From contig CAZOAK010000001.1 of the NCBI GenBank assembly GCA_964577785.1, forward strand, positions 22,398-86,397: a DNA stretch of 64,000 nt, given 5' to 3'. Positions 3,999 through 45,036 of this stretch are shown in pieces. The translations under genes and the position numbers were made by a program. This stretch comes from an uncultured Candidatus Saccharibacteria bacterium (GTDB taxonomy: Bacteria; Patescibacteriota; Minisyncoccia; Phycocordibacterales; CAIRYW01). Position 1 is the stretch's first letter; each line of letters begins with the position of its first letter. Below the pieces are notes generated by a model, which was given only the letters and a program-made list of their open reading frames with translations, was not told the origin of the DNA and did not search any database.

Positions 3999-4238
3999 AT
4001 GAGTACTAAACTTTTAATCGATGTTAGATCTGAAGATGAATTTGAGGGTGGGCACAGAGACGGTGCTGTGAATGTTCCAATTGAAAATATTATGTCTGGA
4101 GATCTTGGGGTCATTGCCACTTTGCCAAAGGATACAGAAATACAATGTTATTGTGCATCTGGTGCCAGATCGGCGGTAGTTAAACAAATTCTAAATCAGA
4201 ACGGATACATGAATGTTACAAATCTTGGAGGATTATGA
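3999..4238 (+). CDS. Single-domain rhodanese-like sulfurtransferase
   Basis: 'LIDVRSEDEFEGGH' and the active-site loop 'CYCASGARS'. Confidence 0.8.
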   Translation: MSTKLLIDVRSEDEFEGGHRDGAVNVPIENIMSGDLGVIATLPKDTEIQCYCASGARSAVVKQILNQNGYMNVTNLGGL

Positions 4239-4265
4239 TTCTGTAAATGGGTGTATAATTGAGAT

Positions 4266-12465: not shown

Positions 12466-12504
12466 AGAGTTTGTCATTTTTATAATGAAATATATAATTA
12501 AAGT

Positions 12505-13518
12505 ATGAATGGGTTATTAGATAGTAAGCTATTGGATCAAACTCCCGAGGAGAAAATTTTTCACGAAATTGAAAAAACTTTGGAAGTTATAACTGAATCA
12601 AAGACTGCATCACCTGCAATAAAACTTGCACTATATAATTTTTTTAAACAGAATCCGGATTACAAGACTGAGGATTTGGATAGAGAGATTGCCAAACTGG
12701 ATGAATTGGCAATGAAGGAGGAATCGTATAAAAACAACAATAAGGTTCCAACTGTTGGGACAGAACTTGAGTTTCCAATTGAGTGGATTACAAAAAATGA
12801 ATCTGATACTCTGACAATCTTGGGAGTTAAAAATGAACCAGAGCCACAGTATGACCATCTTCATGAAGTCAATCAACATTTTTCATACAGCTCAGAGACT
12901 CAGGCAAGAGTTATTGAAGAACTAAAAAAAGCTAGAATTATTAGAGTAAGTGATGACCAGAGTTTATCTCTTCATGTTAATTTTGGTGTTCCTAAAAATT
13001 TAATCAGTCGTGAGGATTTCCAGGATGTAACTAACCTTGCTGATTTTTTTGTTAATGTATCAACAATTACATATGCTTCTGTGCAACGAATAGATACTCG
13101 CAAATCTGCCAATACATTTATTGCACATGCAACTGATGTAGAGAAAAACGAAAAAACAGGTAATCTTAGATTTGAAATTAAAACATTAGGATTTGAAAAT
13201 CTTGTTGCTTATAGAGCTGTAGAAGAATTACAAATGATTTGTGCAGCATACTTCGCATCTATAAAGAAAAAGTATGATTCAGGTCAGTGTGATGGCGAAG
13301 ATAATAAATTGCAAACCATTTGGGATGAGTTTGTGGATGAATTTATCCAATTAATTGATAAATATCACCCTAGAGGGGATTCACCGATTGGTATATATTC
13401 AAATTATGGGCAGTGCGTTTTATTACTGAAAGAACACCCTGAAATAAATGAGGAGGCCAGACTTATTTTCAGTAAATACGCGAGGGAGGTCAAAAGTCTA
13501 CTCTTTGGAGATAAATAA
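12505..13518 (+). CDS. Hypothetical protein (337 aa)
   Basis: Long ORF with no recognisable motif. Confidence 0.5.
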   Translation: MNGLLDSKLLDQTPEEKIFHEIEKTLEVITESKTASPAIKLALYNFFKQNPDYKTEDLDREIAKLDELAMKEESYKNNNKVPTVGTELEFPIEWITKNESDTLTILGVKNEPEPQYDHLHEVNQHFSYSSETQARVIEELKKARIIRVSDDQSLSLHVNFGVPKNLISREDFQDVTNLADFFVNVSTITYASVQRIDTRKSANTFIAHATDVEKNEKTGNLRFEIKTLGFENLVAYRAVEELQMICAAYFASIKKKYDSGQCDGEDNKLQTIWDEFVDEFIQLIDKYHPRGDSPIGIYSNYGQCVLLLKEHPEINEEARLIFSKYAREVKSLLFGDK

Positions 13519-13569
13519 AAATACCCTCAAGCCGAAGCTTTTGGGTATAGAAAATTGAGATCCTGAAAT

Positions 13570-13968
13570 CTAGAAGATGCGGATTTGGCTCAGTCCAGTT
13601 TTTTCCACCTTTTTTCGTGCGAGTATTTCAAGAGTTCTCCGGGTAACCTTTGCTTTAGGTGCAAGAGTGTTTGTGACAATCTTCACGGACAAATCAAAGC
13701 TTTGGTGGGCAATAATGAATGTCACTGCCTGATCGTCTAGATCCAATGTAATCTGAGGTGACTTATAGATGAATCGCCCAATACGGATTACTTTGCTTTT
13801 CGATTCATCCAACTCCAACCTTGCGGTCTTCTTGTCATTGGTCGGGAGACTGCATTGAACGATTTCATCATTGCTGTCTAGAACCGTAATGCAGATCACC
13901 TGGAACCTGCTCAGCACTTTGGGGTCCTTTTTAGCTTTCTTCCTTTTCCAATTTTTCCTTTTAGCCAT
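13570..13968 (-). CDS. Small basic hypothetical protein, divergent from lexA (possible SOS-regulated gene)
   Basis: The start is taken at MAKRKNWKRKKAKK. The MFLRIEYL N-extension in the ORF track is an artefact of an 18-bp inverted repeat. Confidence 0.4.
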   Translation of the reverse strand: MAKRKNWKRKKAKKDPKVLSRFQVICITVLDSNDEIVQCSLPTNDKKTARLELDESKSKVIRIGRFIYKSPQITLDLDDQAVTFIIAHQSFDLSVKIVTNTLAPKAKVTRRTLEILARKKVEKTGLSQIRIF

Positions 13969-14002
13969 AATTTTCTGGGTTGTTGGTTTGATAGGGAATG
14001 AG

Positions 14003-14057
14003 GGTAAATATTCTATCCTTAAAAACACATTATAAATGTTCTTAAGGATAGAATATT
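14003..14057. repeat. Perfect 17-18-bp inverted repeat (aaatattctatccttaa N21 ttaaggatagaatattt) in the divergent lexA intergenic region
   Basis: Seen directly in the sequence. It is why both flanking ORF predictions start with the same peptide. Confidence 0.8.
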
Positions 14058-14159
14058 TAAGGAATCGAATTCGTCACAAACTACTGCAGAAAGTCTCTTT
14101 AAAGGTACATGTTCAGACGAACTATACATTAGTGTTTTGTATTAATCAAACAAAATCTC

Positions 14160-14188
14160 TTGCATATCGAACAATCGTTCGATATAAT
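14160..14188 (+). promoter_or_regulatory. lexA promoter TTGCAT-N17-TATAAT with a Cheo-type SOS box (CGAACAATCGTTCG, 14168-14181) in the spacer
   Basis: Perfect CGAAC-N4-GTTCG palindrome between consensus-like -35 and -10 hexamers. The ATG at 14195 lies about 7 nt after the -10, so the mRNA may be leaderless. Confidence 0.55.
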
Positions 14189-14194
14189 TGGAGT

Positions 14195-14809
14195 ATGAAA
14201 AAGAAAGGGAAACCATTCACATTCTATATATCTGCAATTGAAGCCTTTTATACCAAGCATCGAAGGATGCCTTCTTATGAAGAATCTGCCAAAATATTTG
14301 GATTTAAATCTAAAGATTCGGCATTTAGAATTATTAAGCAAATGATTCTAAAAGGAAATTTAGATAAAGATAAGAATGGTAAACTCATACCAATAAAATC
14401 TAAAGTATTTAAAACAAAACCTCAGAGTATTAATGAAGGATTGGCACTCCTTGGTCTTGTGGAGGCAGGATTTCCAACGCCAGCGGAAGAAAACAATCTA
14501 GATAGAATTACACTCGATGAGTGGCTTATAGATGACAGAGATTCATCATTTATGCTCAAAGTTAAGGGTGAATCTATGCAGGACGCTGGTATACATGCCG
14601 GTGATTTCGTTATCGTAGAAAGAACTAATGTTCCAAAGGTTGGTGCAATAATTATCGCAGAAGTTGACCACGAGTGGACCATTAAATATTTACGCAAAGA
14701 TTCTAAAGGATATTATCTAGAACCAGCTAATCCAAATTTTAAAATAATTCGTCCAAAAGAAGATTTGAAAATAAGTGCCATAGTTAAGGCTGTTATCAGG
14801 AAGTATTAA
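14195..14809 (+). CDS. lexA: LexA repressor (N-terminal wHTH plus S24 peptidase)
   Basis: N-terminus 'ISAIEAFYTKHRRMPSYEESAKIFGFKSKDSAFRIIKQMILKG'. C-terminus 'LKVKGESMQDAGIHAGDFVIV...IIIAEVDHEWTIKYL' includes the Ser-Lys dyad region. Confidence 0.85.
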   Translation: MKKKGKPFTFYISAIEAFYTKHRRMPSYEESAKIFGFKSKDSAFRIIKQMILKGNLDKDKNGKLIPIKSKVFKTKPQSINEGLALLGLVEAGFPTPAEENNLDRITLDEWLIDDRDSSFMLKVKGESMQDAGIHAGDFVIVERTNVPKVGAIIIAEVDHEWTIKYLRKDSKGYYLEPANPNFKIIRPKEDLKISAIVKAVIRKY

Positions 14810-14815
14810 TCCGTC

Positions 14816-14997
14816 CCGTTCGAAATCCTTCAGTTGAACAGAGTTACATATTCAAATTAAGCAAAAGCATGATAATCAGTTTAGATTTAAATATACTACG
14901 GAAGCGCTTAACTTTATTGCAAAACAAGCTAGAGATTAACGATTTATTAATTATTAAATAATATTGGGACGGCGGTAAGCGCTTCCTATTTCGAACG
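14816..14997. repeat. Nested inverted repeats: outer cccgttcgaaat/atttcgaacggg and inner ggaagcgctta/taagcgcttcc. They bracket the 180-nt region upstream of the Y-family polymerase
   Basis: Seen directly in the sequence. Confidence 0.6.
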
Positions 14998-14999
14998 GG

Positions 15000-16253
15000 A
15001 TGAGGAATTACATTATTCACATTGATGGTGATGCATACTTTGCATCATGTGAAGTAGCTAGACGGCCTGATCTTTTTGGTCAGCCTGTTGTTGTAGGTGA
15101 AGAAAAAGGTATTGCATGTGCTATGACCTACGAGGCCAAGGCGCTTGGTGTTTATCGTGGAATGCCGGTGTTTAAGATACGACAAGAATTTCCACAAGTG
15201 ACCGTAATATCATCGCATTTTGAACTCTATCATGAGTATAATAATAAATTGGTAGAGATTCTCAAACAATATTTACCAAAGGTAGAAAGATATAGTGTGG
15301 ATGAATGTTTCGCCGTAACTCCTAAAATGGATGAAGAAAATATTCAACCATTTGTAGAAATGCTAAAAAATAAAGTTCAAACTTCGCTTGGGATTACTTT
15401 TTCTTTTGGAGTTGCTACTACCAAAACTTTGGCTAAAATCGCCTCAAAAAAGGACAAACCAGATGGGCTAGTGGTACTCTTACATCCTAATTTCATAGAA
15501 AAAACTCTCACAGAGACTCCTGTGGCTTCGATTTGGGGTGTTGGTAGACAAACTAGTGCTAAACTAATTGGAATAAATATTCTGACTGCTAAACAATTTA
15601 TTGATGTACCTAAGGACCAAATCCTTTCTTTATTTTCTGAACCGGTATTTAATACTCACGAGGAATTACTTGGAAATAAAATATTTGATGTTAGTGATAC
15701 ATATGAACCGCAGAAAAGTGTCCAAGCCACTAGATCAATGGATAAATCAACCTCATCCGAAAATGTTCTTTGGAGTGAATTATCTAGGAATGTTGAAATG
15801 GCTTGTGAGGATATTAGAAGGATGAATCTTTTGGCCGGCTCTGTAGGATTCTTTTATAAAAAAGCTGTGACAAAGTATCGAGTGTCTCATGCTTTTAAAT
15901 TATCTTTACATTCTGATGATCCGACAATGATCTTAAAAGAAATAAAAATCTTTCTGTCCAAGGTCTATGAAAAAAATGAGCGCTACAAGGGGACTGGTGT
16001 CAGTCTTTATGATTTAAGGTCCAAAGACATGGTCACAAATGACCTTTTTGGCGAAAGTAGGTGTATGGATATATCCTCTAATTTGCGATTAAAGGCCGTC
16101 GATGGATTAAACCGAAAATTTGGAAAATGGACAATTATGCATGCGTCGAGTTTGAACTCTGTTTTGAGAAGAAATAAAGAAGGGGAAGAAAGAAATAAAA
16201 AAGATAATTTTATTTATGGTTTGCCATTACCGTATATGGGTGAAGTTAACTAG
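15000..16253 (+). CDS. dinB: Y-family DNA polymerase (DinB/Pol IV-like)
   Basis: 'IIHIDGDAYFASCE', 'SVDECF', 'GVATTKTLAKIASKKDKPDG' and the 'IWGVGRQT' HhH region. Confidence 0.85.
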   Translation: MRNYIIHIDGDAYFASCEVARRPDLFGQPVVVGEEKGIACAMTYEAKALGVYRGMPVFKIRQEFPQVTVISSHFELYHEYNNKLVEILKQYLPKVERYSVDECFAVTPKMDEENIQPFVEMLKNKVQTSLGITFSFGVATTKTLAKIASKKDKPDGLVVLLHPNFIEKTLTETPVASIWGVGRQTSAKLIGINILTAKQFIDVPKDQILSLFSEPVFNTHEELLGNKIFDVSDTYEPQKSVQATRSMDKSTSSENVLWSELSRNVEMACEDIRRMNLLAGSVGFFYKKAVTKYRVSHAFKLSLHSDDPTMILKEIKIFLSKVYEKNERYKGTGVSLYDLRSKDMVTNDLFGESRCMDISSNLRLKAVDGLNRKFGKWTIMHASSLNSVLRRNKEGEERNKKDNFIYGLPLPYMGEVN

Positions 16254-16510
16254 CCAAAATTTTAAAATTTGTAAGGGGAAGTGCTTCCTTAAAGTCCCTA
16301 TAGTATTATTACCGAAAAGATATATTGTGCGACATGCATACAATCGGAAGGACCTGTATTCCCGACCGCTAAACATCATTAAAATTTTGGACTTGGTTAG
16401 AACTATATAATTATTTATATAAAGATTTAAGTATTCAATTATTTAAGAATAAGAAATAAAAAACTGTCCGCACTTTTTACAAAGCGGGACAGGTACGAAT
16501 TCCGGGATGA

Positions 16511-22292: not shown

Positions 22293-23516
22293 TTAATTTT
22301 TCTTTGCTAATTCTAACGCTTTGTCTAACTGAGGATCTTTTTTTGCAGCAATATCCTCTGGTGTTAACTCAACGATGTGATCCGGTACAATCCCGTTATG
22401 AGATATTGAAGTTCCTTTCGGTGTTAGCCATCTTGCGATTGTAACCTTTAACATTGAATCGTCTGTAAGTGGTATTAATTCTTGTACAGATCCTTTACCG
22501 TAAGTTTTTGTTCCAACAAGGACTGCTTTGTCATAATCCCTCAAGGCACCAGCAAATATTTCCGATGCAGATGCAGAATTTTCATTTACCAACATCACTA
22601 TTTTTACATTGTTGTTAAATAGGTTGTATCCTTTACTTCTATATGATTTAGGATCCTCTTTTTTACCAAAATCTTCAGTCACAATTACTTTACCTGTTCC
22701 TAAAAACCAACTTGATATATCAACAGCTGCTTCTAGGTATCCTCCTGTATTATTTCGGAGGTCTATTATTAGTTTTGAGTCTTTGTTATCAACGAATTCT
22801 CTGAGTGCAGATCTAAATAGTTCAGGAGAATTAGATGTGAAGCTTGTAAGCTTGATGAGGAAAACACCATCCTCTAATCTCTCTGTCTCAATAACTGGTA
22901 CAGTCACGGAGTCTCTCTTTATGGCCATCTCAACTTTAGACTTACTACTTCCTCTAACAATAACTAAATTTACTATTGTCCCCTTTTTTCCTCTAATTAG
23001 AGACACGGCCTCATCAATATCAATTCCTGACATATTTTTTCCATTAACCTCTGTTATGATATCTCCCTCTGTAACACCATTTTTTTCTGCTGGGGAATTT
23101 TTAATTACCGAAGTTACTGTTAAAACACCTGTTTTCATTGAAAGTACTGCTCCAATTCCATCCACACTACCTGATAGGTCGGTGTTGAAGCTTTTTGTTT
23201 CCTCTGGTGGAAGATATGTTGTGTATGGATCACCCAATGACTCAGCCAATCCCTTAATTGCTCCATAGATTTTATCTTGCTCGCTAGTTGTTGTAGCCGT
23301 ATCAATGTATCTATCTTCTAGTATGTCCCACGCTTTCCAAAAGGCTGACATGTCGATACTATTTCGGTCACTTGTTAAATTATTTGTATAGGTACTTGCA
23401 ATTGCTGTTTTGTTTGCGTCAACATATAGTCCAGCAAAAAAAGAAACTGTTACTAAAAAAGTGGTTCCTACTATAATTCCAGCTCTTTTCCCCAAGTTTT
23501 TTATTGTTTGATTCAT
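22293..23516 (-). CDS. ctpA: S41 carboxyl-terminal processing protease with a PDZ domain
   Basis: N-terminal TM, a PDZ ('GDIITEVNGKNMSGIDIDEAVSLIRGKKGT') and the S41 catalytic region 'LVNENSASASEIFAGALRD'. Confidence 0.85.
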   Translation of the reverse strand: MNQTIKNLGKRAGIIVGTTFLVTVSFFAGLYVDANKTAIASTYTNNLTSDRNSIDMSAFWKAWDILEDRYIDTATTTSEQDKIYGAIKGLAESLGDPYTTYLPPEETKSFNTDLSGSVDGIGAVLSMKTGVLTVTSVIKNSPAEKNGVTEGDIITEVNGKNMSGIDIDEAVSLIRGKKGTIVNLVIVRGSSKSKVEMAIKRDSVTVPVIETERLEDGVFLIKLTSFTSNSPELFRSALREFVDNKDSKLIIDLRNNTGGYLEAAVDISSWFLGTGKVIVTEDFGKKEDPKSYRSKGYNLFNNNVKIVMLVNENSASASEIFAGALRDYDKAVLVGTKTYGKGSVQELIPLTDDSMLKVTIARWLTPKGTSISHNGIVPDHIVELTPEDIAAKKDPQLDKALELAKKN

Positions 23517-33140: not shown

Positions 33141-35762
33141 CTATTTATTTAAAACTTTTTTCAAATATTGGCCGGTGTATGATTTTTTGTTATTAGCAAC
33201 TTCCTCTGGAGTTCCTTTTGCCACCAATTGTCCCCCGCCATCTCCACCATCAGGACCTATATCAATTATAAAATCTGAACATTTAATAAGATCCATATTA
33301 TGCTCAATGACAACTACAGTATTGCCTTTGTTTACAAGAGTTTGAAGTATTTCGATTAATTTTTTAACGTCTTCATAGTGTAGTCCTACAGTCGGCTCAT
33401 CTAATAGATAAATTGTTTTTTGAATGTGACTTCTATAAAGTTCTGAAGAGATTTTGACTCTTTGCGCCTCTCCACCTGAAAGTGTTGTAGCGCTTTGCCC
33501 AAGTTTTACATACCCAAGCCCCACTTCATCTAGTGTCCTGAGTCTGTCATAAACAGTTGGAATATCTTCAAAAAATGCCAAAGCTTCTTCGATGGTCATT
33601 TCTAGAACATCAAAAATACTTTTCTTTTTATATTTTATTTCTAGAGTCTCTTTCATAAACCTCTTACCATTACAAACATCGCATGTGACATAAACTGTTG
33701 GTAAGAAGTGCATTTCTACTTCTATCATTCCATTACCTTCACAAGTCTCACATCGTCCGCCTTTGCGGTTAAATGAGAATCTGCCAGCATTCCATCCTCG
33801 CACACGAGCCTCTGATGATGCGGCAAATAGGTCTCGTATATGAGTCCACGCCCCTGTATAAGTGACAGGATTAGAACGGGGTGTGCGTCCGATTGGAGAC
33901 TGATCAATTAAGATTGTGCGATTTATATACTCTGTACCTGTAAATGATGAACAATTAAATGTTTGTGCAGTTCTGTGTTTTCTTTCAAGTTTTGCTTGTA
34001 AATTTTTGTGTAATATTTCATAAACAAAAGATGATTTACCAGATCCTGATACACCTGTTACTGTAACAAGTCTTCCTAGAGGAATCTCTACATTCATATT
34101 TGTGATATTAAAAATTTTACCTCCTGCAATTTTTATTTTACCTTTGTCTTGTGTTCGTCTTTCATCTGGAATTTCTACTTTTTCTTCTTCACGGAGATAT
34201 GCGAGGGTCAAGGATTCTGAATCGTTTTTCTTTGCAGTAATAAGATCATCCAAATATCCTGACACCACAACATTACCACCATGAACACCAGCTCCTGGGC
34301 CAATATCAATAATGAAATCAGAGGCGAACATTGTGTCTTCATCATGTTCTACAACGAGAATTGTATTACCTAAATCACGCAAATGAAGCAGTGTTTTAAT
34401 GAGTCTGTCGTTATCTCGTTGATGCAGACCAATTGTTGGCTCATCAAGCACATATAAAGCTCCTACAAGTCCAGAACCGAGCTGCGAAGCAAGTCTTATT
34501 CGCTGAGCCTCACCACCAGACAGAGTATTTGCTCGCCTATCGAGTGATAAATACTCGATACCAACATTTACCATGAATTTGAGTCGTGCTTGAATTTCCT
34601 TTATAACAACTTTAGAAATTTCTATATCTTTTTCACTTAGATCCAAATTATCAAAAAATTCCACAGCGTTTTTGATGGACATTTCAACTAAATTAACTAT
34701 GTTTATTTTGTGGCCAATATAAACATGGAGTGCTTCCGGTCTGAGACGTGCACCATTACAAACCTTACATAATTCATTTACAAAAAATTCTCGTGTACCC
34801 AAACCATTACACTCAGGACATGCGCCGTATGGGGAGTTAAAAGAAAATAATCGTGGTTCTATCTCAGGATATGAGAATCCATCGTAGGGACACATAAATT
34901 TAGAGGAAATTAAATGACTGTCAGTAGGAGTCTTAATGCGGAGTAGTCCCTCTGATTCAGTAAGAGCTCGCTCGATTGCCTCACTTAATCTTTCTTTGAA
35001 ACTTGGAGTATTTTCTTTTAGTTCTGAGAAATAAAATTCGTCCACCAGAACATCAATGTCATGCTTTTTGGTTTTAGATAATTCAATTCTTTCGCGTAGG
35101 TTCTTTTCTACTCCATCAACCATAACTTTTTCATATCCTTTACCTAAAAGATCATAAAGCATTTGATAGTATTCGCCCTTTCGTCCTACAACTATTGGAG
35201 AATAAATTTGAAAAGTTAATGAATCAATTTTAACTCCTAATATTTCTTTCGATCGCTTGCCATCTAGCAGTTTTGAATTGCTATCAGGGTCAATAGAATT
35301 AACTGTATGTAAAATCGTTTCAAATATTTCTTCTTTAGAAAGTTTTTTTATCTCTCTACCGCATTCTAGACAATGAGGCTTCCCTATTCGAGCAAACAAT
35401 ATTCTCAGATAATCATAAATTTCAGTGATTGTAGCGACGGTTGAACGAGGATTATTAGAACGAGACTTTTGATCAATAGAAATGGCTGGAGAAAGGCCTG
35501 TGATTTCATCCACGTCAGGTTTCTGCATTTGTCGAAGAAATTGTCGCGCGTAAGATGATAGTGATTCTACATATCTGCGCTGACCTTCAGCAAATACAGT
35601 ATCGAATGCAAAAGATGATTTACCAGAACCAGAAAGTCCTGTAACAGCAATCATTTTGTTGCGAGGAATCTCTACTGTAATGTTTTTGAGGTTATGAGTT
35701 CGGGCACCCTTAACAACAATTTTTTCTACATCCCTATCTAATTTTTTGACGTGTTTATGCAT
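33141..35762 (-). CDS. uvrA: Excinuclease ABC subunit A
   Basis: Two ABC ATPase modules ('GLSGSGKSS', 'GVSGSGKSS') with zinc-finger CxxC pairs. Confidence 0.9.
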
Positions 35763-36620: not shown

Positions 36621-38648
36621 CTATTTTTTTGCCTCTAACTTTTTATTTAATTCAATAATTTCATCCCGTAGTATGGCAGCTGTTTCAAAGTCTAACTCTT
36701 TTACAGCGAGTGACATTTGCTTTTCTTTTTCCTTTATAAATTTCTTTGGATCTTTTTCAAATAAGAAACTATCAACTGATAATAAGGAATCAATAGTATT
36801 TTTCCTTTCCGATTGAATCGTCTCAGTAATATCTTTAATATTTTTTAAAATTGTTTTTGGGGTTATTCCGTGTTCAGTATTGTAAGCAATTTGGATATTT
36901 CTTCTCCTATTTGTTTCGCCAATCGCCTTTTCCATTGATTTGGTCATGTGATCAGCATATAAAATAACCCTGCCCTCAACATTTCTTGCAGCTCTACCTA
37001 TAGTTTGAATGAGTGATGTTTCGGAACGCAGGAATCCTTCTTTATCAGCATCCAATATTCCAATGAGTGCTACTTCAGGCAGATCCAATCCTTCTCGAAG
37101 TAGGTTTACTCCCACAAGCACATCGAACTTCCCTCTTCGAAATTCTGTAAGAATTTGAATTCTATCCAAAGTCATTATGTCGCTATGCAAATATTCTGCT
37201 TTTATCTTTTTTTCCTTCAAAAATTCTGAAAGGTCCTCTGCCATTTTCTTAGTAAGGGTTGTTGCAATAACTCTAAAGCCTTTTTTGATAGTTTTTTCCG
37301 CCTCTTCAATAAAATCTTTTATTTGACCCTTGTAGTTTCCATTTTCAGTTACTGGTTTGATATCAATCTGAGGATCAATGAGTCCAGTTGGACGAATAAC
37401 TTGCTCCGCGATATTCTCACTATGTTCCTTTTCATATACACCAGGAGTTGCAGAAGTATAAATAACCTGTCCAACACTTTCCTCAAATTCATTAAACTTA
37501 AGAGGTCTGTTGTCAGCCGCTGATGGAAGTCTAAATCCGAAATCAATTAAATTCTTCTTTCTTGAAGCATCGCCAGCATACATTCCACCAATTTGGGACA
37601 CTGTCACATGTGATTCATCAATGATTGTTAAGAAATCAGGGCTACCGTCTGCCTTGTGTGGGAAATATGAAAGCAGCGTTTCTGGAGCCTCACCAGTTTT
37701 TTTATCAGAAAAATGTCGTGAGTAGTTTTCAATACCATTACAATATCCAACTTCGCGAATAAGTGCCAAATCATATGTTGTTCGTCTTTTTAATCTTTCT
37801 GCTTCAATATTTTTACCTTCTTTTTCTAATTCTTTTAAACGAGCTTTTAATTCTTGACTTATACTTTCTATTGCACGCTTCTGTCCAGCTTCGTCAGTGA
37901 TAAAGTGCTTGGCTGGAAATAAAAAGAAGACATCTATTTCTTCAATAATTTCTCTTGTAACAGCATCCACCTTAAAAATTCTAAGTATTTCATCTCCCTT
38001 AAAATCAATTTTGAATATTACTCTTTCATTAACTGGCATTATCTCTACCGTATTACCGAGAGCTCTGAATTGTCCGGGACTAAGATCTGCTATTGTTCTA
38101 TCAAAGTGTATGTCGATAAATTTACGCGCAAGATCATTCCGACTTATTTTTTGTCCAACATCCACTCTGACATTTACCTTTTCGTATTCTTTTGGAGATC
38201 CTAAACCATAAATGCACGATACAGATGAGACTATGATTACATCTTTGCGAGTCAGAAGCGCTTGAGTTGATGCATGCCGGAGACGCTCAATCTCTTCGTT
38301 TATTTGAGCCTCTTTTTCAATGTAGGTATCGGATGCACTCATGTATGCTTCTGGTTGATAGTAATCATAATAAGAAACAAAATAATGAACAGCATTTTCT
38401 GGGAAGAATTCTCGATATTCTTGAGCAAGCTGAGCCGCGAGAGTTTTGTTGTGTGCAATAACCAATGTTGGTTTACCAACATTATGTATTACATTCGCAG
38501 CAGTGTAAGTCTTACCAGAACCAGTCACCCCTAAAAGAGTCTGGTGCTTAAAACCTTTTTTAATTCCCTCCGTTAATGACTCTATGGCTTTCGGCTGGTC
38601 TCCAGCCGGAAGATATTCGCTCCTAATTTTAAATAGATTTGATTGCAT
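36621..38648 (-). CDS. uvrB: Excinuclease ABC subunit B
   Basis: 'LLGVTGSGKTYTAANVI', DEAD-like helicase motifs, and a C-terminal UVR domain 'ELDFETAAILRDEI'. Confidence 0.9.
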   Translation of the reverse strand: MQSNLFKIRSEYLPAGDQPKAIESLTEGIKKGFKHQTLLGVTGSGKTYTAANVIHNVGKPTLVIAHNKTLAAQLAQEYREFFPENAVHYFVSYYDYYQPEAYMSASDTYIEKEAQINEEIERLRHASTQALLTRKDVIIVSSVSCIYGLGSPKEYEKVNVRVDVGQKISRNDLARKFIDIHFDRTIADLSPGQFRALGNTVEIMPVNERVIFKIDFKGDEILRIFKVDAVTREIIEEIDVFFLFPAKHFITDEAGQKRAIESISQELKARLKELEKEGKNIEAERLKRRTTYDLALIREVGYCNGIENYSRHFSDKKTGEAPETLLSYFPHKADGSPDFLTIIDESHVTVSQIGGMYAGDASRKKNLIDFGFRLPSAADNRPLKFNEFEESVGQVIYTSATPGVYEKEHSENIAEQVIRPTGLIDPQIDIKPVTENGNYKGQIKDFIEEAEKTIKKGFRVIATTLTKKMAEDLSEFLKEKKIKAEYLHSDIMTLDRIQILTEFRRGKFDVLVGVNLLREGLDLPEVALIGILDADKEGFLRSETSLIQTIGRAARNVEGRVILYADHMTKSMEKAIGETNRRRNIQIAYNTEHGITPKTILKNIKDITETIQSERKNTIDSLLSVDSFLFEKDPKKFIKEKEKQMSLAVKELDFETAAILRDEIIELNKKLEAKK

Positions 38649-39937: not shown

Positions 39938-42466
39938 TTAATTTACCTCCACCGCACTCCAGTTCACTCTACATGCAGTTTCTATTGAAGAGACATCTCC
40001 ACTATCTATCTGAGTACATGTCATTTTTGGTACAGTATCTTTGATAATATTGTCTATTGAATGGGATACTGGTGCCGTAGTTGATCCTGGTGAGAAGCTA
40101 ACAGTTTCTGTTGCTGTACTGAATACACATCTTGTAAAGTAGTCATATGTTTTGAAAACATCAGTACTCCAATCAATAACACAACTGTATCCCTTATTTC
40201 CTAATTCAGGATCAGCTTCTAATGATTTGAATGATACAGATCCAACCTCATCAGCGGCAATATTTGGATTTAGTTCAAAGTATTCTGCAGCTGTGCCAGA
40301 GTTGCATGCATCAGCATTAGATAAACATTGCTGAACTAACTCACAGTAATATGTACCAGATGGACATCCTCCACCTCCTCCACCTCCACCACCATTACAT
40401 CCAACACATGGAACATCAGGATTGTCTTCATTCAAAGAATCAGTCGTTAGACTACAGTTTGCATTTGATCCGCCATATGTGCCAAGACATGACCATGCGT
40501 AAGTAGTCCCAGATAGAACACCTCCCGACATTGACCCTACTGAACAGTAGGACGAATATGCTGGCCATGATGTTATTTTATTTAATCCATTGACACCTCC
40601 ACAAACTCCAGGTACTGGAGGTGGTACACTACAAACACCATAACTATTTGGGACCCTGCCTGTTGCACAATGCACATAATACGGTACATAACCACTAATA
40701 ATGTAGCACCCATCAGTAATATAAAAACTTATTTTCTGCGCACCCGCTTTATCACCTACAGAAACTGATCTGGTGGTAAAGGTATCTGAATCCTGATAGG
40801 TAGTATGTCCTCCTGAAACTTCTGTGTAATGGAACTGTCTGTCTCCGGTAGAGCCATCACCACTGTTATAGAAATTTAGAATTAAATGATTTGTACTATT
40901 GGTACATGCCTCAAAAGTAACATTTCCTGAAAGTGCAATCGTAGACCCTTCTACATAATGAGAGTTGTCATAGGGTGTATAAATAGTTATACCAGGTGGT
41001 GAATACATTTCTATTGTGCATCCATAATATGTATTTGTGTATATCCATCCGTTCGCAGTTATTGGTAATGCAACCGCTGATGCAAAAATAATAAGTGATA
41101 GTGTGGAAATGTTTATTTTTCTCCTTCTAAATAAAACAATCCCAATTATAATAATCAAAGTAATAACGATTATAATGGTAACACTTCTCACAGTCTTGGC
41201 AGACTTTTCCTCGTTAGAAACTTTGTCATAATCATTAGACAATTTTGACTCTTGTCTCATAAGCAAAACCCCATCTTTATTATAAACAGATACAACAGCC
41301 TTCATAACTTTAGCATCCTTTAGGGCACTTAGCGTTATTGGACCTTTTTTATCTTGAGACAGGTCAAATGTATCGGAATAACTAGCAACTAAATCATCCA
41401 ATTCATTTAAGACCACTATATTTATTTTACCGATCCCGGGTTTCTCGGGCTTGGCAACAGATGCACCATTCTTTTTGAGCATCTGATTCACAATTTCAAT
41501 ATCAAAAGGTCTGCCAGATACTAAGAAATTAAGAATAAATTCATCACCAAATTTTACCTGAGATTTATTAGATGATAAGTCGTGCAATGCGGCAATGTCC
41601 CCAGCAACGATATATCTAACACCAATTCTGGTTGCAAGCTGATTACCTTTTTCATCATTTAATAATATCTCAGCAAAATAGACCGCTGGTGTATACTCAA
41701 ATACTGGTAAATCTATCGAAACCTTTTTTAATTCACCAGCCTTTAGGATAATCGGATTCTGCTTGATATCTAACTTCTCACTTTTGTCATGCTGATTGTA
41801 TACATTAATTAGAGGATTGATTGATAATTGATTCAAAGAGTTATTTTCTAGATTAACTGAAAGGTGTGCGGTTTTAGGATCCTTATCTTTATAAATTGTT
41901 GGACCCTCAGTTAAATCATATTCTTTATTATTATCTAGAATTAATTTTGCATTGGTTACCGAAAGCCTGTTTGAATTATTTGCGACAGTAATATAATGAC
42001 TACTACCCTGATTCATGATCACTGAATTAATGGAATACAAATTAATATGTACAGCTAACTTGGAGCCTTTTATGAATTGAGGCACTTTGTACTTAAAAAT
42101 AATTTTTTTTGTTTCACCTCCACTAACGTCACCAACAGAACTTAATGAAGTAGCATCAAGAAAGGTGTTTGTTATCTTCAGATCCTTATTAATTTCTTCA
42201 TAGTCACTTCCAATTAGAACTCTGTATGATAAATTCTTTAGAACAGAATCTCCATGGTTCGTCACGGTAAAACTACCGTTTACTTCATCGCCGGCCTTGT
42301 ACTCCGTGTCATTTATTAAAACATTATCAACCGAAGCACTCGACATTTGAATATTTACACCACTCACACTATTTTGTGGAATGGTATTAGCAGGATTTAC
42401 TTCAACACCAAAAGCTGTGGTTGAAACAAACAATATTGATAAAACTGAAAAAAAAATCTTTTTCAT
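39938..42466 (-). CDS. Large cell-surface protein, paralog 1. Domain order is signal peptide, N-ectodomain, TM plus an internal signal-like segment, poly-Gly, Cys-rich C-domain
   Basis: Signal peptide 'MKKIFFSVLSILFVSTTAFG', 'TIYKDKDPKTA', mid-protein 'IIIVITLIIIIGIVLFRRRKINISTLSLIIFASAVALPITANG', 'CNGGGGGGGGGCPSG', and the C-terminus 'CRVNWSAVEVN'. Confidence 0.6.
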   Translation of the reverse strand: MKKIFFSVLSILFVSTTAFGVEVNPANTIPQNSVSGVNIQMSSASVDNVLINDTEYKAGDEVNGSFTVTNHGDSVLKNLSYRVLIGSDYEEINKDLKITNTFLDATSLSSVGDVSGGETKKIIFKYKVPQFIKGSKLAVHINLYSINSVIMNQGSSHYITVANNSNRLSVTNAKLILDNNKEYDLTEGPTIYKDKDPKTAHLSVNLENNSLNQLSINPLINVYNQHDKSEKLDIKQNPIILKAGELKKVSIDLPVFEYTPAVYFAEILLNDEKGNQLATRIGVRYIVAGDIAALHDLSSNKSQVKFGDEFILNFLVSGRPFDIEIVNQMLKKNGASVAKPEKPGIGKINIVVLNELDDLVASYSDTFDLSQDKKGPITLSALKDAKVMKAVVSVYNKDGVLLMRQESKLSNDYDKVSNEEKSAKTVRSVTIIIVITLIIIIGIVLFRRRKINISTLSLIIFASAVALPITANGWIYTNTYYGCTIEMYSPPGITIYTPYDNSHYVEGSTIALSGNVTFEACTNSTNHLILNFYNSGDGSTGDRQFHYTEVSGGHTTYQDSDTFTTRSVSVGDKAGAQKISFYITDGCYIISGYVPYYVHCATGRVPNSYGVCSVPPPVPGVCGGVNGLNKITSWPAYSSYCSVGSMSGGVLSGTTYAWSCLGTYGGSNANCSLTTDSLNEDNPDVPCVGCNGGGGGGGGGCPSGTYYCELVQQCLSNADACNSGTAAEYFELNPNIAADEVGSVSFKSLEADPELGNKGYSCVIDWSTDVFKTYDYFTRCVFSTATETVSFSPGSTTAPVSHSIDNIIKDTVPKMTCTQIDSGDVSSIETACRVNWSAVEVN

Positions 42467-42621: not shown

Positions 42622-45036
42622 TTAATTAACTTCTACAGCACTCCAGTTCACCCTGCAGATTGCCTCCTTGGAGGCAGTAGCAGTACCGTCTATTTGAACA
42701 CAGCTCATTTTAGTTAGTGTGTCTACTTGAACATCGTATATTGTTTGTGAAGTAGGGGCTGTAGTCGATGCTGGAGAAAAATTGATTGTATTCAAAGGGG
42801 TGGTGAATGTACATCTGGTGTAATTGTCATATGATTTGAATACATCGTCACTCCAATCAATGACGCAACTATAACCTTTATTACCTATTAAGGGTGATGG
42901 AACTAAAGTTTTTAAAGATACTGGACCCTCATTATCAAGTTTAATGTTTGGATTTGGAACGAAGTCTGCTGTACAAGTTTCTCCGCTTAGTAGACACACA
43001 CCGTCACAATATTTACCTGAAGCACAAGAACTGCTACCACCACCAGTAATTCCACCCCCTGTATTATCCCCATTAGTTTTGGAAGCAAGACATGAAGATA
43101 TATTATTTGCACCACTTACATTTGTTCCAGTACATGACCATGACCATTTACCATTTTGTGTTGTAACAGAGGATGCTGTCCCTGAAGAGCACAGGTTTGT
43201 TGATGGTTGTGCCGATGTTCCAACACCATTAGCAGATCCGCAAATTCCATCGTATGTCAAAACTGGGGGGACAGGAGGCTCTGGGACGACAATGTGGACC
43301 CATTTATTATCCACTACTTGACCGCCATACACTGTATCTGTATTTATACCCTGATATAGGAGCCAGTATGAGCCAGGGGTTGTAGGTGCATAAAATGGTC
43401 CAGCAACAAAAGTTGTGTTGTGGGGATAGAAACCATGATCCTTTAAGTTAAGTCCGCCGGCAGTATCTATAACACCAAGACGATGGACCTCTCCCCAACT
43501 GCTTGATACATTTACTCTAATATTAGATGCTGCATTGGTGCATGCTGTGTACCACACACTTCCAGTAGTATAAAATGCCTGTCCTGGATTCAAAACCTGC
43601 CAATCATACGGTGAGGCAGGACTAAGTGTGATAGCAAGACTATCTGCCGCACGAGCATTGGTTGGTGTGAATAAGGTCATAGCAGATATAAGTATAAATA
43701 ATCCCATCATACCCGCATTAGAAGCTCTATTTTTTTTCATCATAAAAAAGATAATCACTCCAATAATTAGCAGCAATGTTGCAAAGAGTAACTTGTTGAG
43801 TGGTCTCGTATGGTTTTTTTCAAATTCAGCAGCTTTAATATCATAATCAGCACTAAGATTTTTCTTGTAATCTAATATTAGTTCTCCTAAATCGTTGTGC
43901 ACTGTAACAGATACTCTTAGAGCTTGAGCTGAAGCAGATGATTTAATGTATTTCTTTAAAACCGTATTACCTGAAATAAGAAACGTATCTTTTACAGAAG
44001 CCACAAGTTGATTCTTTTCATTATAAATATTTACAGTTACGGTACCTTTTTCTTCAGAATCAGTAGAAGAAGGTTTACCACTTCTTATTTCTGACATATC
44101 AGGAGCTGTGCCAGTAAGGAGTGCGTCGAGCGCAAATAGTTCATTATTATTCAAAATTTCTTTGTCAACAGAAATACTTTGAACTGTCGCAATATTGCCT
44201 CCGACTATGTACCGAGCTTCAACAAATGATTCGAGCTGACGACCGCTGGAATCTTTAAGTATTATATCTGTTAGGTAAATTCCCGGCTTATATAGGGCTG
44301 TAGGCAATGGAATAGCTACTTGCTTAGTCTCCTTTGCCTTTAAGTCAAAGGATGTTCCTTTGCTTTCTTGAATTTCAAGCATGTCACTTTGCTTATATAG
44401 ATTTATTTGTGGAATGATTGTTATAGAAGTGTCATTTGGGTTTGTGACTGAGAGAACTATAGAAGCACTCTTTGGATCTTTGTCTTTATATATCGTGGGA
44501 CCATCTCCAAGACCAAATGACTCTCCATTACTCAAAACAACCGCAGCACTATTAATCATGATACCCTCCCCACCCTTTTTTATATTAAAGTAATCACTAT
44601 CCCCCCATGTTATAAGCTGTCCTGATTGTGTGTAGATATCGATGTGTATTGCCAATTCATCACCCCCAACAAAAGCTGGTATAATATATTTGAATGGGAT
44701 ACTTACTGATTTATCTTTTGCTATAGAAATATCTCCTTGTCTGGGACTAAAATCAAGGATATTACTTGAAGATTTTATACCTGGAGCAATTTCTACATAA
44801 TCTGTACCGATCAACAGTTGGAACATAAGTCCAGTTACAGCAAACTGAGAGTGATTTTCTAAGACGAATGATCCGTTTACTGTCTCACCAGCGTTATAAG
44901 AGGTTTTGTCTGTGATGATACTGGCTACGTGTAAACTCGTCTGATTATCCTTGCTTATCGAAACCACTTCAGCATTTGTGAATATGGATAATGAAAAAAG
45001 TATAAACAATAAAATTGGGGTAATGTATTTTTTCAT
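42622..45036 (-). CDS. Large cell-surface protein, paralog 2, with the same architecture
   Basis: Signal peptide, 'TIYKDKDPKSA', mid-protein 'LLLIIGVIIFFMMKKNRASNAGMMGLFILISAMTLFTPTNARAAD', a Gly/Cys-rich segment, and the C-terminus 'CRVNWSAVEVN'. Confidence 0.6.
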   Translation of the reverse strand: MKKYITPILLFILFSLSIFTNAEVVSISKDNQTSLHVASIITDKTSYNAGETVNGSFVLENHSQFAVTGLMFQLLIGTDYVEIAPGIKSSSNILDFSPRQGDISIAKDKSVSIPFKYIIPAFVGGDELAIHIDIYTQSGQLITWGDSDYFNIKKGGEGIMINSAAVVLSNGESFGLGDGPTIYKDKDPKSASIVLSVTNPNDTSITIIPQINLYKQSDMLEIQESKGTSFDLKAKETKQVAIPLPTALYKPGIYLTDIILKDSSGRQLESFVEARYIVGGNIATVQSISVDKEILNNNELFALDALLTGTAPDMSEIRSGKPSSTDSEEKGTVTVNIYNEKNQLVASVKDTFLISGNTVLKKYIKSSASAQALRVSVTVHNDLGELILDYKKNLSADYDIKAAEFEKNHTRPLNKLLFATLLLIIGVIIFFMMKKNRASNAGMMGLFILISAMTLFTPTNARAADSLAITLSPASPYDWQVLNPGQAFYTTGSVWYTACTNAASNIRVNVSSSWGEVHRLGVIDTAGGLNLKDHGFYPHNTTFVAGPFYAPTTPGSYWLLYQGINTDTVYGGQVVDNKWVHIVVPEPPVPPVLTYDGICGSANGVGTSAQPSTNLCSSGTASSVTTQNGKWSWSCTGTNVSGANNISSCLASKTNGDNTGGGITGGGSSSCASGKYCDGVCLLSGETCTADFVPNPNIKLDNEGPVSLKTLVPSPLIGNKGYSCVIDWSDDVFKSYDNYTRCTFTTPLNTINFSPASTTAPTSQTIYDVQVDTLTKMSCVQIDGTATASKEAICRVNWSAVEVN

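Follow-up and report, generated by a model that had tools for sequence, protein, structure and literature searches.

The question raised by this locus is whether the gene of an S24-type protein and the gene of a Y-family DNA polymerase behind it form an SOS unit under their own LexA repressor, and what part is played by the palindromic DNA that separates them and by a small divergent gene that precedes them. The DNA analysed, called the window here, is a stretch of 64 kb that is AT-rich (36% G+C), and its sequence features were read directly over positions 13600-16500. The features that an original prediction, made from the letters of the sequence, had placed in this region were all found by this direct reading. 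We think it very likely that this locus of a Patescibacteria (Paceibacteria-like) genome is its core SOS operon, formed by a self-repressing lexA and a gene for a Y-family polymerase, to which two lineage-specific insertions have been added. The core is an ordinary member of the known LexA/GAAC-N4-GTTC class. What stands out is one of the insertions, a palindromic element of 190 nucleotides (nt) with a repeated association with SOS operons.

The promoter of lexA occupies positions 14160-14188 of the plus strand. Direct reading gives a -35 hexamer TTGCAT (14160-14165), a spacer of 17 nt and a -10 hexamer TATAAT (14183-14188). Within this spacer lies the putative LexA operator CGAACAATCGTTCG (14168-14181), which is a perfect CGAAC-N4-GTTCG of the GAAC-N4-GTTC type, and whose 14-bp dyad overlaps the promoter elements as in the Cheo box class. 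The ATG of lexA stands at 14195, only 6 nt past the -10 hexamer; the original prediction had the perfect box and the short spacing right, and had put the latter at about 7 nt. A scan of the 64 kb allowing up to one mismatch found CGAACAATCGTTCG at these positions as its sole match, and the same scan gave at least one match in 40 of 100 shuffled sequences. With a position-specific scoring matrix (PSSM) built from related sites the score of the box, 17.9, equals the best score obtained from 30 shuffles, and the second-best site in the 64 kb scores 8.5. Thus, in a scan of this length the box by itself is compatible with chance, and its significance lies in position and conservation: it is judged to be more than a chance occurrence because it stands upstream of lexA and is conserved in relatives.

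This conservation was assessed on 80 fetched loci encoding relatives of the LexA of the window, 40 of which, from Patescibacteria, were used for counting upstream boxes. Of these 40, 19 carry a perfect GAAC-N4-GTTC in the stretch of about 110 nt that precedes lexA, compared to about 0.27 expected (0.0067 for each stretch of this length, as derived from the remainder of the same loci). The layout is nearly the same everywhere across the loci of the phylum, with TTGAC or TTGCA, the box in the spacer, TATACT or TATAAT, 6-8 nt and the ATG. The five closest sequences (L081, L082, L083, L084 and L086) follow the pattern TTG(C/T)AT-A(T/C)-CGAAC-N4-GTTCG-(A/G)-TAT(A/C)AT-6 nt-ATGAA(A/G)AAG. GAAC-N4-GTTC has been established by experiment as the LexA motif of Firmicutes, Actinobacteria and Gallionellales (PMC4951493). 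Consensus and conservation point to binding of LexA at the box and to a transcription start next to the ATG, and they argue for the autoregulation of lexA through a Gram-positive-type box in its own promoter that had been predicted.

Two other motifs were noticed around these promoters. A second perfect GAAC-N4-GTTC core (AGAACTAATGTTCC) lies at 14620-14635 inside the coding region of lexA and is shared with L081; given its low PSSM score of 6.4, it is probably explained by the codons for ERTNVP. Moreover, the motif (G)TTATCCACA, identical to the DnaA-box consensus, is found at a near-fixed distance of about 9 nt upstream of the -35 hexamer in 21 of 33 box-bearing SOS promoters (for example L006 at about 3935, L024 at about 3930 and L027 at about 3690), the background rate being 0.01 per 39 nt. 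It is absent from the lexA promoter of the window. Since at least two non-SOS promoters in L012 are also preceded by TTATCCACA, the motif may serve promoters in general as an upstream element.

The product of lexA (14195-14809, plus strand) is a protein of 204 residues with a predicted N-terminal winged helix-turn-helix and an S24 self-cleaving domain. PF00717 (Peptidase_S24) is the sole Pfam domain detected in it, with 85.8 bits. In phmmer searches, residues 13-192 and 25-185 align to full-length solved LexA repressors, helix-turn-helix included. The residues A91-G92, S127 and K164 show no variation among 32 aligned relatives, and the cleavage-site motif VEAGFP aligns to the VAAG of solved LexA. 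The closest homologues among the matches listed are, by the names given in the sources, LexA or S24 peptidases of Candidatus Paceibacterota, Pacebacteria and the Patescibacteria group. On the basis of these alignments we accept the S24 protein as a divergent yet apparently complete LexA, whose Ala-Gly cleavage site and Ser/Lys dyad are intact, and the gene had thus been correctly named.

The second gene of the operon (15000-16253, plus strand) encodes a Y-family translesion DNA polymerase of 417 residues with IMS, IMS_C and HHH domains. PF00817 (IMS) matches it with 135.8 bits and PF11799 (IMS_C) with 40.3 bits, and the solved proteins that it matches best are DNA polymerase IV enzymes. Among the NCBIfam models, the UmuC subfamily gives 173.3 bits (cutoff 431) and the best DinB model 162.7 bits (cutoff 256). 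Because both scores are far under the cut-offs, the enzyme appears assignable to the Y family but to neither the DinB nor the UmuC group; the DinB-like polymerase of the original prediction is retained as to family and not as to group. Of 42 Patescibacteria loci, 29 have a gene for a homologue of this polymerase downstream of lexA and in the same direction, most of them at a distance of no more than 50 nt. In the nearest clade, L082 and L083 show an overlap of 8 nt between the two genes, and L081 and L086 have gaps of 2 nt and 13 nt, respectively. Because the genes overlap or lie 2-16 nt apart in relatives, the polymerase is taken as ancestrally coupled to lexA, and the ancestral state would be a two-gene operon with translational coupling.

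The spacer between these two genes holds unrelated inserted genes in other loci (L004, L020, L026, L031, L042, L047 and L049). An open reading frame (ORF) for a four-helix bundle is common to L020, L047 and L049; the others, read by eye only, are MazF-like, M48 peptidase-like and IS200-like, and there is an ORF of 279 residues as well.

The short distance between the -10 hexamer and the ATG is not peculiar to lexA. At 19 of 57 gene starts of the window (examples are those at 2167, 4266, 7207, 8862, 12505, 16975, 46869 and 62205), a hexamer with at least 5 of 6 matches to TATAAT ends 5-8 nt ahead of the ATG, and in 12 of the 19 the distance is exactly 6 nt; such a hexamer at 5-8 nt is found for 4.5% of all ATGs. 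Shine-Dalgarno cores are present at 2 of the 57 starts, which is the background rate. The 6-nt gap of lexA is kept in its relatives, and this supports the prediction that its mRNA is leaderless. The original prediction had also called lexA leaderless, and this holds as far as promoter spacing can tell, yet the leaderless start is the general mode of the genome and no SOS-specific property; the unrelated gene ORF337, discussed below, also has TTGTCA-16-TATAAT-6 nt-ATG. Leaderless promoters appear to be the default for gene starts in this genome. In the literature that was searched we found no description of such a default for Patescibacteria, and we think that gene callers and start-site annotation for the phylum should allow for it.

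The palindromic element occupies positions 14810-14999 (plus strand), exactly between the stop codon of lexA and the ATG of the polymerase, where L081 and L086 have gaps of 2 and 13 nt and the element is absent from the orthologous junction. Its outer arms (14812-14826 and 14988-15002) share a perfect core of 13 nt (14814-14826 and 14988-15000), the 3' arm including the ATG of the polymerase, and its inner arms lie at 14900-14910 and 14976-14986. The element has an AT-rich core and carries a conserved promoter-like ATGATA-N17-TATACT (14869-14897). The element is no assembly artefact, since two independent assemblies (NCBI GCA_020049755.1 and Logan SRR12762274) match the window with 100% identity across it. 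The RNA of the element is predicted to fold with -49.3 kcal/mol (z = -3.2), the outer stem including the AUG. Scans with Rfam, of the whole window and, permissively, of 13950-15100, gave no family for the element, and the PSSM found no LexA-type site in it. The nested inverted repeats that the original prediction had reported at 14816-14997, with no match to the Cheo consensus, are present as described and belong to this 190-nt insertion. Their proposed role as a second operator for the polymerase is not supported by an insertion that L081 and L086 lack and that holds no LexA-type site. An attenuator-like effect on the polymerase, also suggested for them, is possible only as a consequence of the insertion. 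In addition, the sequence of the inner arms recurs in the window as a GGAAGTGCTTCC palindrome behind the stop codon of the polymerase (16277-16288).

A metagenome scan for the outer arms returned one further copy, at 3673-3862 of L087, a contig of a distant member of the Patescibacteria; this copy is 83% identical over 191 nt. Beyond the element this contig of 7.4 kb has no DNA similarity to the window. The L087 copy also folds (z = -4.5) and ends in ...TATTTCGAACGGG directly before an ATG, as in the window, this ATG being the start of lexA. In L008, which is syntenic and whose LexA is 95% identical to that of L087, about 23 nt are found where L087 has about 239, and the element is absent. In L087 and L008 the SOS promoter, which carries a canonical TGAAC-N4-GTTCA box, is located further upstream, and its first gene encodes a protein of 67 residues, named X here; the L087 element is thus inside an operon with the order box, X, lexA and polymerase. 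Each copy separates two cistrons of an operon with predicted LexA control, both have one orientation, and each directly abuts the start codon of the cistron behind it. No more copies were found by blastn in the window or in 86 fetched loci, nhmmer over 87 loci found copies only in the window and in L087, and none was found in viral contigs or by using translations of minus-strand ORFs as protein bait. An ORF of 30 codons runs without a stop through both copies; counted on the alignment, its differences number 13 nonsynonymous and 1 synonymous, and it therefore seems to be under no protein constraint.

Two observations were made in the surroundings of the second copy. Upstream of the element, at about 3890-3930 of L087 (minus strand), some 27 nt of the 5' end of lexA (ATGGA...AAAGACAAAATA) are apparently duplicated as a remnant ORF of 13 codons; this copy may be the scar of a recombination event or a duplication of unusual length. 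The 13-mer TACGGAAGCGCTT of the inner arm recurs in L087 as a separate hairpin in the spacer between lexA and polymerase (2670-2697), and the hairpin is kept in L008 (about 4205-4240) through two compensatory double changes.

The best reading of these features, judged from structure and distribution, is that the element is a small insertion resembling a miniature inverted-repeat transposable element (MITE). It is short, non-coding and bounded by terminal inverted repeats with perfect arms of 13-15 nt, and it is present or absent at orthologous sites, both between the window and L081 or L086 and between L087 and L008. The Correia-type MITEs of Neisseria are non-coding sequences of about 100-200 nt with terminal inverted repeats, form a hairpin when transcribed and are typically multi-copy. 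The element is like them in size, terminal inverted repeats, presence/absence polymorphism, promoter-like hexamers and a hairpin fold that might be a substrate of RNase III. In contrast to them, it has one copy per 64 kb and two known copies in all, shows no clear target-site duplication, and has both copies in SOS operons and flush with a start codon.

The other insertion is an island of 1694 nt (12466-14159) between an ABC-transporter gene and the lexA promoter. L081, whose LexA is 91% identical to that of the window, shows about 82% DNA identity and synteny on either side of lexA. Because L081 runs from the stop codon of the 487-residue ABC-transporter gene to the -35 hexamer of lexA in 9 nt, the island is considered an insertion; the same-species contigs L084 and L085 (95% DNA identity) carry it too. 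It contains two convergent ORFan genes. ORF337 (12505-13518, plus strand) has its leaderless-type promoter at 12471-12498, which scored 11/12 in a promoter scan, and ORF132 (13570-13968, minus strand) encodes a small basic protein of 132 residues with an isoelectric point of 10.2. Comparison with L084 gives 5 nonsynonymous and 19 synonymous codon differences for ORF337, and 11 and 10, respectively, for ORF132, which is probably a real gene that evolves fast. It is a species-restricted ORFan: neither a word-seeded search of 5.8 billion proteins nor a full HMMER search of 1.84 billion representatives found homologues beyond its own species, and the single homologue in both searches was P0121, of the same species. 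ORF132 has no match in Pfam even at E<10, no LysM domain, no NCBIfam or PHROG family, no membrane segment (maximum Kyte-Doolittle score over 19 residues of 1.16) and no LexA box of its own in the PSSM scan of the window. ORF337 has no assignment in Pfam, NCBIfam, PADLOC or PHROG. At loose thresholds, PADLOC, PHROG and Pfam gave only noise for both genes, including a weak JetB match of ORF132 in PADLOC at E=0.01. The AlphaFold models are unusable, with confidence scores (pLDDT) of 36.7 for ORF132 and 38.4 for ORF337. Between ORF132 and the lexA promoter there is, in addition to what the original prediction had listed, an inverted repeat of 23 nt (14005-14059; 96% complementary, with a loop of 9 nt), which shows two one-sided, non-compensated changes in L084; as a candidate Rfam RNA it was rejected, the permissive scan of 13950-15100 giving meaningless microRNA-like matches only. 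As judged from synteny and homology, the island lies outside the conserved SOS module and shows no demonstrable link to SOS.

The interpretation of the core has to face some results that weigh against it, and so has, further below, that of the element. LexA scores 105.2 bits over residues 14-203 with the NCBIfam lexA model TIGR00498, under the cutoff of 110.95, and the Pfam LexA_DNA_bind model does not match its N-terminus. Moreover, the PSSM scan of the 64 kb found no further box and none upstream of uvrA (33141-35762) or uvrB (36621-38648), two genes identified by Pfam; that both lack a box had been noted by eye in the original prediction. With a lone box in 64 kb, the regulon may be very small. 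An alternative that builds on part of these results is that the S24 protein is a local UmuD-like or HdiR-like regulator of the adjacent polymerase and that the pair is a umuDC-style cassette. Peptidase_S24 is all that Pfam detects in the protein, the UmuD subfamily model scores 101.7 bits against 105.2 for the lexA model, both under cutoff, the top NCBIfam match of the polymerase is UmuC, lexA is usually joined directly to the polymerase gene, and the 64 kb hold no second box, uvrA and uvrB having none. We think that this is nevertheless quite unlikely. UmuD is devoid of the N-terminal winged helix-turn-helix, whereas the S24 protein is full length and aligns to solved LexA from residue 13 or 25, with that domain included. 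The promoter of its gene contains a palindromic operator of the LexA type, and many of the 120 homologues listed, out of 1210, are named LexA or SOS regulatory protein by their sources. A comparative study of 2017 by Sanchez-Osuna, Barbe and Erill (Environ Microbiol 19:3465; cited in PMC8565304 and PMC7739468) reportedly treats this protein as the SOS repressor of Patescibacteria, with a Gram-positive-like motif. For ORF132, the original prediction had pointed to the position in which Bacillus carries yneA, so that it might be an SOS-controlled division inhibitor sharing the LexA operator with lexA. The gene is indeed basic, divergent and adjoining the lexA promoter, it has a promoter-like TTGATT-17-TATAGT on the minus strand (14149-14121) about 20 bp from the box, and a strain with 95% identity has kept it intact, the nonsynonymous changes per site being, by a rough estimate, three-fold fewer than the synonymous ones. 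However, the divergent ORF is missing from L081, the closest syntenic relative, and from everything outside the species in the 1.84 billion representatives; it has neither LysM domain nor membrane segment; the box falls outside the core of its candidate promoter; and the SOS operons of other Patescibacteria hold a different conserved protein, of 67 residues. We consider an SOS role of this kind extremely improbable and largely refuted by the lack of conservation in relatives, the very check that the original prediction had proposed; on these comparisons ORF132 is neither a conserved SOS gene nor an analogue of YneA.

Concerning the element, the points on the negative side are that both main stems are invariant between the two copies, which precludes a test of covariation (the one compensatory pair is in a minor hairpin only), that the hairpins, with no run of T behind them, do not resemble a terminator, that two copies are known, one of them in 64 kb, and that a clear target-site duplication is missing, the flanks being (G/A)T before and ATG after the element. 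The arms could also be binding sites of a protein or of a transposase. A rival to the MITE-like insertion is a dedicated regulatory or processing cassette that is selected in SOS operons and is not selfish, either as an RNase III site or as a pair of operators for a regulator that recognizes GGAAGCGCTT palindromes. In favor of such a cassette, both copies lie in operons with a predicted LexA control, in one orientation, and end in ...TATTTCGAACGGG before the ATG of the downstream cistron; the probability that a random second insertion falls in such a place is of the order of 0.003, a rough estimate that sets about 2 suitable sites against several hundred genes. Furthermore, in a genome that does not use Shine-Dalgarno sequences, an uncoupled downstream cistron needs another route of initiation. 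The recurrence of TACGGAAGCGCTT in the compensated spacer hairpin of L087 and L008, and that of GGAAGTGCTTCC behind the polymerase, point in the same direction. On the other hand, the sample consists of two copies, the main stems lack covariation, the element has no LexA box, the junction between lexA and polymerase is a general site of unrelated insertions in other lineages (ORF identities read by eye), and neither viral contigs nor protein bait gave further copies. In our opinion the cassette is thus a doubtful explanation, although a selected regulatory or processing role is possible, and two copies out of two are placed in SOS operons. In its most developed form, held as tentatively, the element would be a transferable intercistronic cassette tied to the SOS operons of Patescibacteria, which controls the cistron flush with its end post-transcriptionally or through an internal promoter independent of LexA. 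If this were true, the cassette would insert, or be retained, flush with the downstream SOS ATG (polymerase in the window, lexA in L087), and the AUG would be buried in a helix of about 26 bp that needs cleavage, for example by RNase III, to free a near-leaderless mRNA.

Some other identities of the element were tried and rejected. A decayed gene X or SOS promoter was suggested by eye only, through a LQ..DL.IIK likeness and a TGAAC-N4-TTAC piece; a hidden Markov model of X finds nothing in the six-frame translations of either copy, and 83% identity across distant lineages opposes decay. GTTCG and CGAAC in the arms might be taken as LexA half-sites, but they are everted, 170 bp apart and without a PSSM match. 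Ends like those of an integron attC site or of a tRNA were discarded as well, since core-site consensus and orientation do not fit by eye and ARAGORN finds no tRNA.

Combining the preferred readings of core and element, the operon might work as follows. A LexA dimer bound to CGAAC-N4-GTTCG between the -35 and -10 hexamers of its own promoter would block RNA polymerase. When transcribed, the operon would start at or next to the lexA ATG, giving a leaderless mRNA as predicted for about a third of the genes in the window. Upon DNA damage, self-cleavage of the repressor at Ala91-Gly92 by Ser127/Lys164, stimulated by RecA, would remove it, and derepression would yield LexA and the Y-family polymerase from one transcript. 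The element would break the translational coupling between both cistrons, and in the bicistronic RNA it may fold into an interrupted helix of about 26 bp that buries the AUG of the polymerase. This helix might act as a post-transcriptional brake on a mutagenic polymerase or be a processing site for RNase III, and the ATGATA-N17-TATACT of the element could be an internal start independent of LexA.

When compared to known systems, the window shares with the LexA of Bacillus subtilis and Mycobacterium tuberculosis the 14-bp CGAAC-N4-GTTCG, an autoregulated lexA and the S24 Ala-Gly site with the Ser/Lys dyad. It differs from these Gram-positive systems in that a single operator is located in the -35/-10 spacer of a leaderless promoter, the protein is just under the NCBIfam lexA cutoff, uvrA and uvrB have no box in the 64 kb, and lexA is in an operon with a Y-family polymerase. 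With the SOS network of Patescibacteria there is agreement in phylum, LexA clade and Gram-positive-like motif, the module being one more instance of it. In umuDC and in lexA-imuA-imuB-dnaE2, with the second LexA of Gallionellales, an S24 gene is also directly upstream of a translesion polymerase and co-induced with it. The upstream protein of the window is an apparently complete DNA-binding repressor and not UmuD, and the likeness to umuDC is in gene order only; moreover, the window encodes a lone Y-family polymerase, accompanied by neither imuA nor dnaE2. In Betaproteobacteria, relatives of the LexA clade with 31-38% identity are sometimes followed by a Y-family-like gene. With the YneA of Bacillus subtilis, ORF132 shares only the divergent position beside lexA; it lacks the LysM domain, the membrane anchor and the conservation, and lies inside a recent insertion. 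The SOS module adds little, namely one more genome with a minimal operon of LexA and translesion polymerase under a Gram-positive-type operator. The element, found in the SOS operons of two distant lineages and in the same kind of position, offers a test case for the translation of downstream genes without Shine-Dalgarno sequences.

The protein X mentioned above is a conserved basic protein of about 67 residues (for example MSKHQTIKEMRLEIERLNKTIDMKIIHGHSYAVEARRHKFLISSLNRLSPRSSWFARSLNFASMFLF, at 3770-3973 of L026) in the SOS operons of a sister clade within the Patescibacteria. Its gene is upstream of lexA in L005, L008, L012, L016, L021, L022, L026, L027, L033, L038 and L087, and between lexA and polymerase in L031; in 11 of these operons it is the first gene behind the promoter with the LexA box. 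The C-terminal tail is moderately hydrophobic and rich in aromatic residues. X belongs to no Pfam or NCBIfam family and has no homologue within the window. We regard it as a candidate SOS effector, and a better one than ORF132.

Two observations concern other parts of the window. An Rfam match to the Rickettsia small RNA sRNA47 at 22466-22607 (plus strand), with 62.4 bits against a gathering threshold of 60, lies antisense in a gene for an S41 peptidase with a PDZ domain (22293-23516) and is probably no real small RNA. Two adjacent ORFs on the minus strand, at 39938-42466 and 42622-45036, encode proteins of 842 and 804 residues without a Pfam domain. Both carry the 12-mer GCACTCCAGTTC 16 nt inside their 3' end, and this shared position suggests that they are tandem paralogues.

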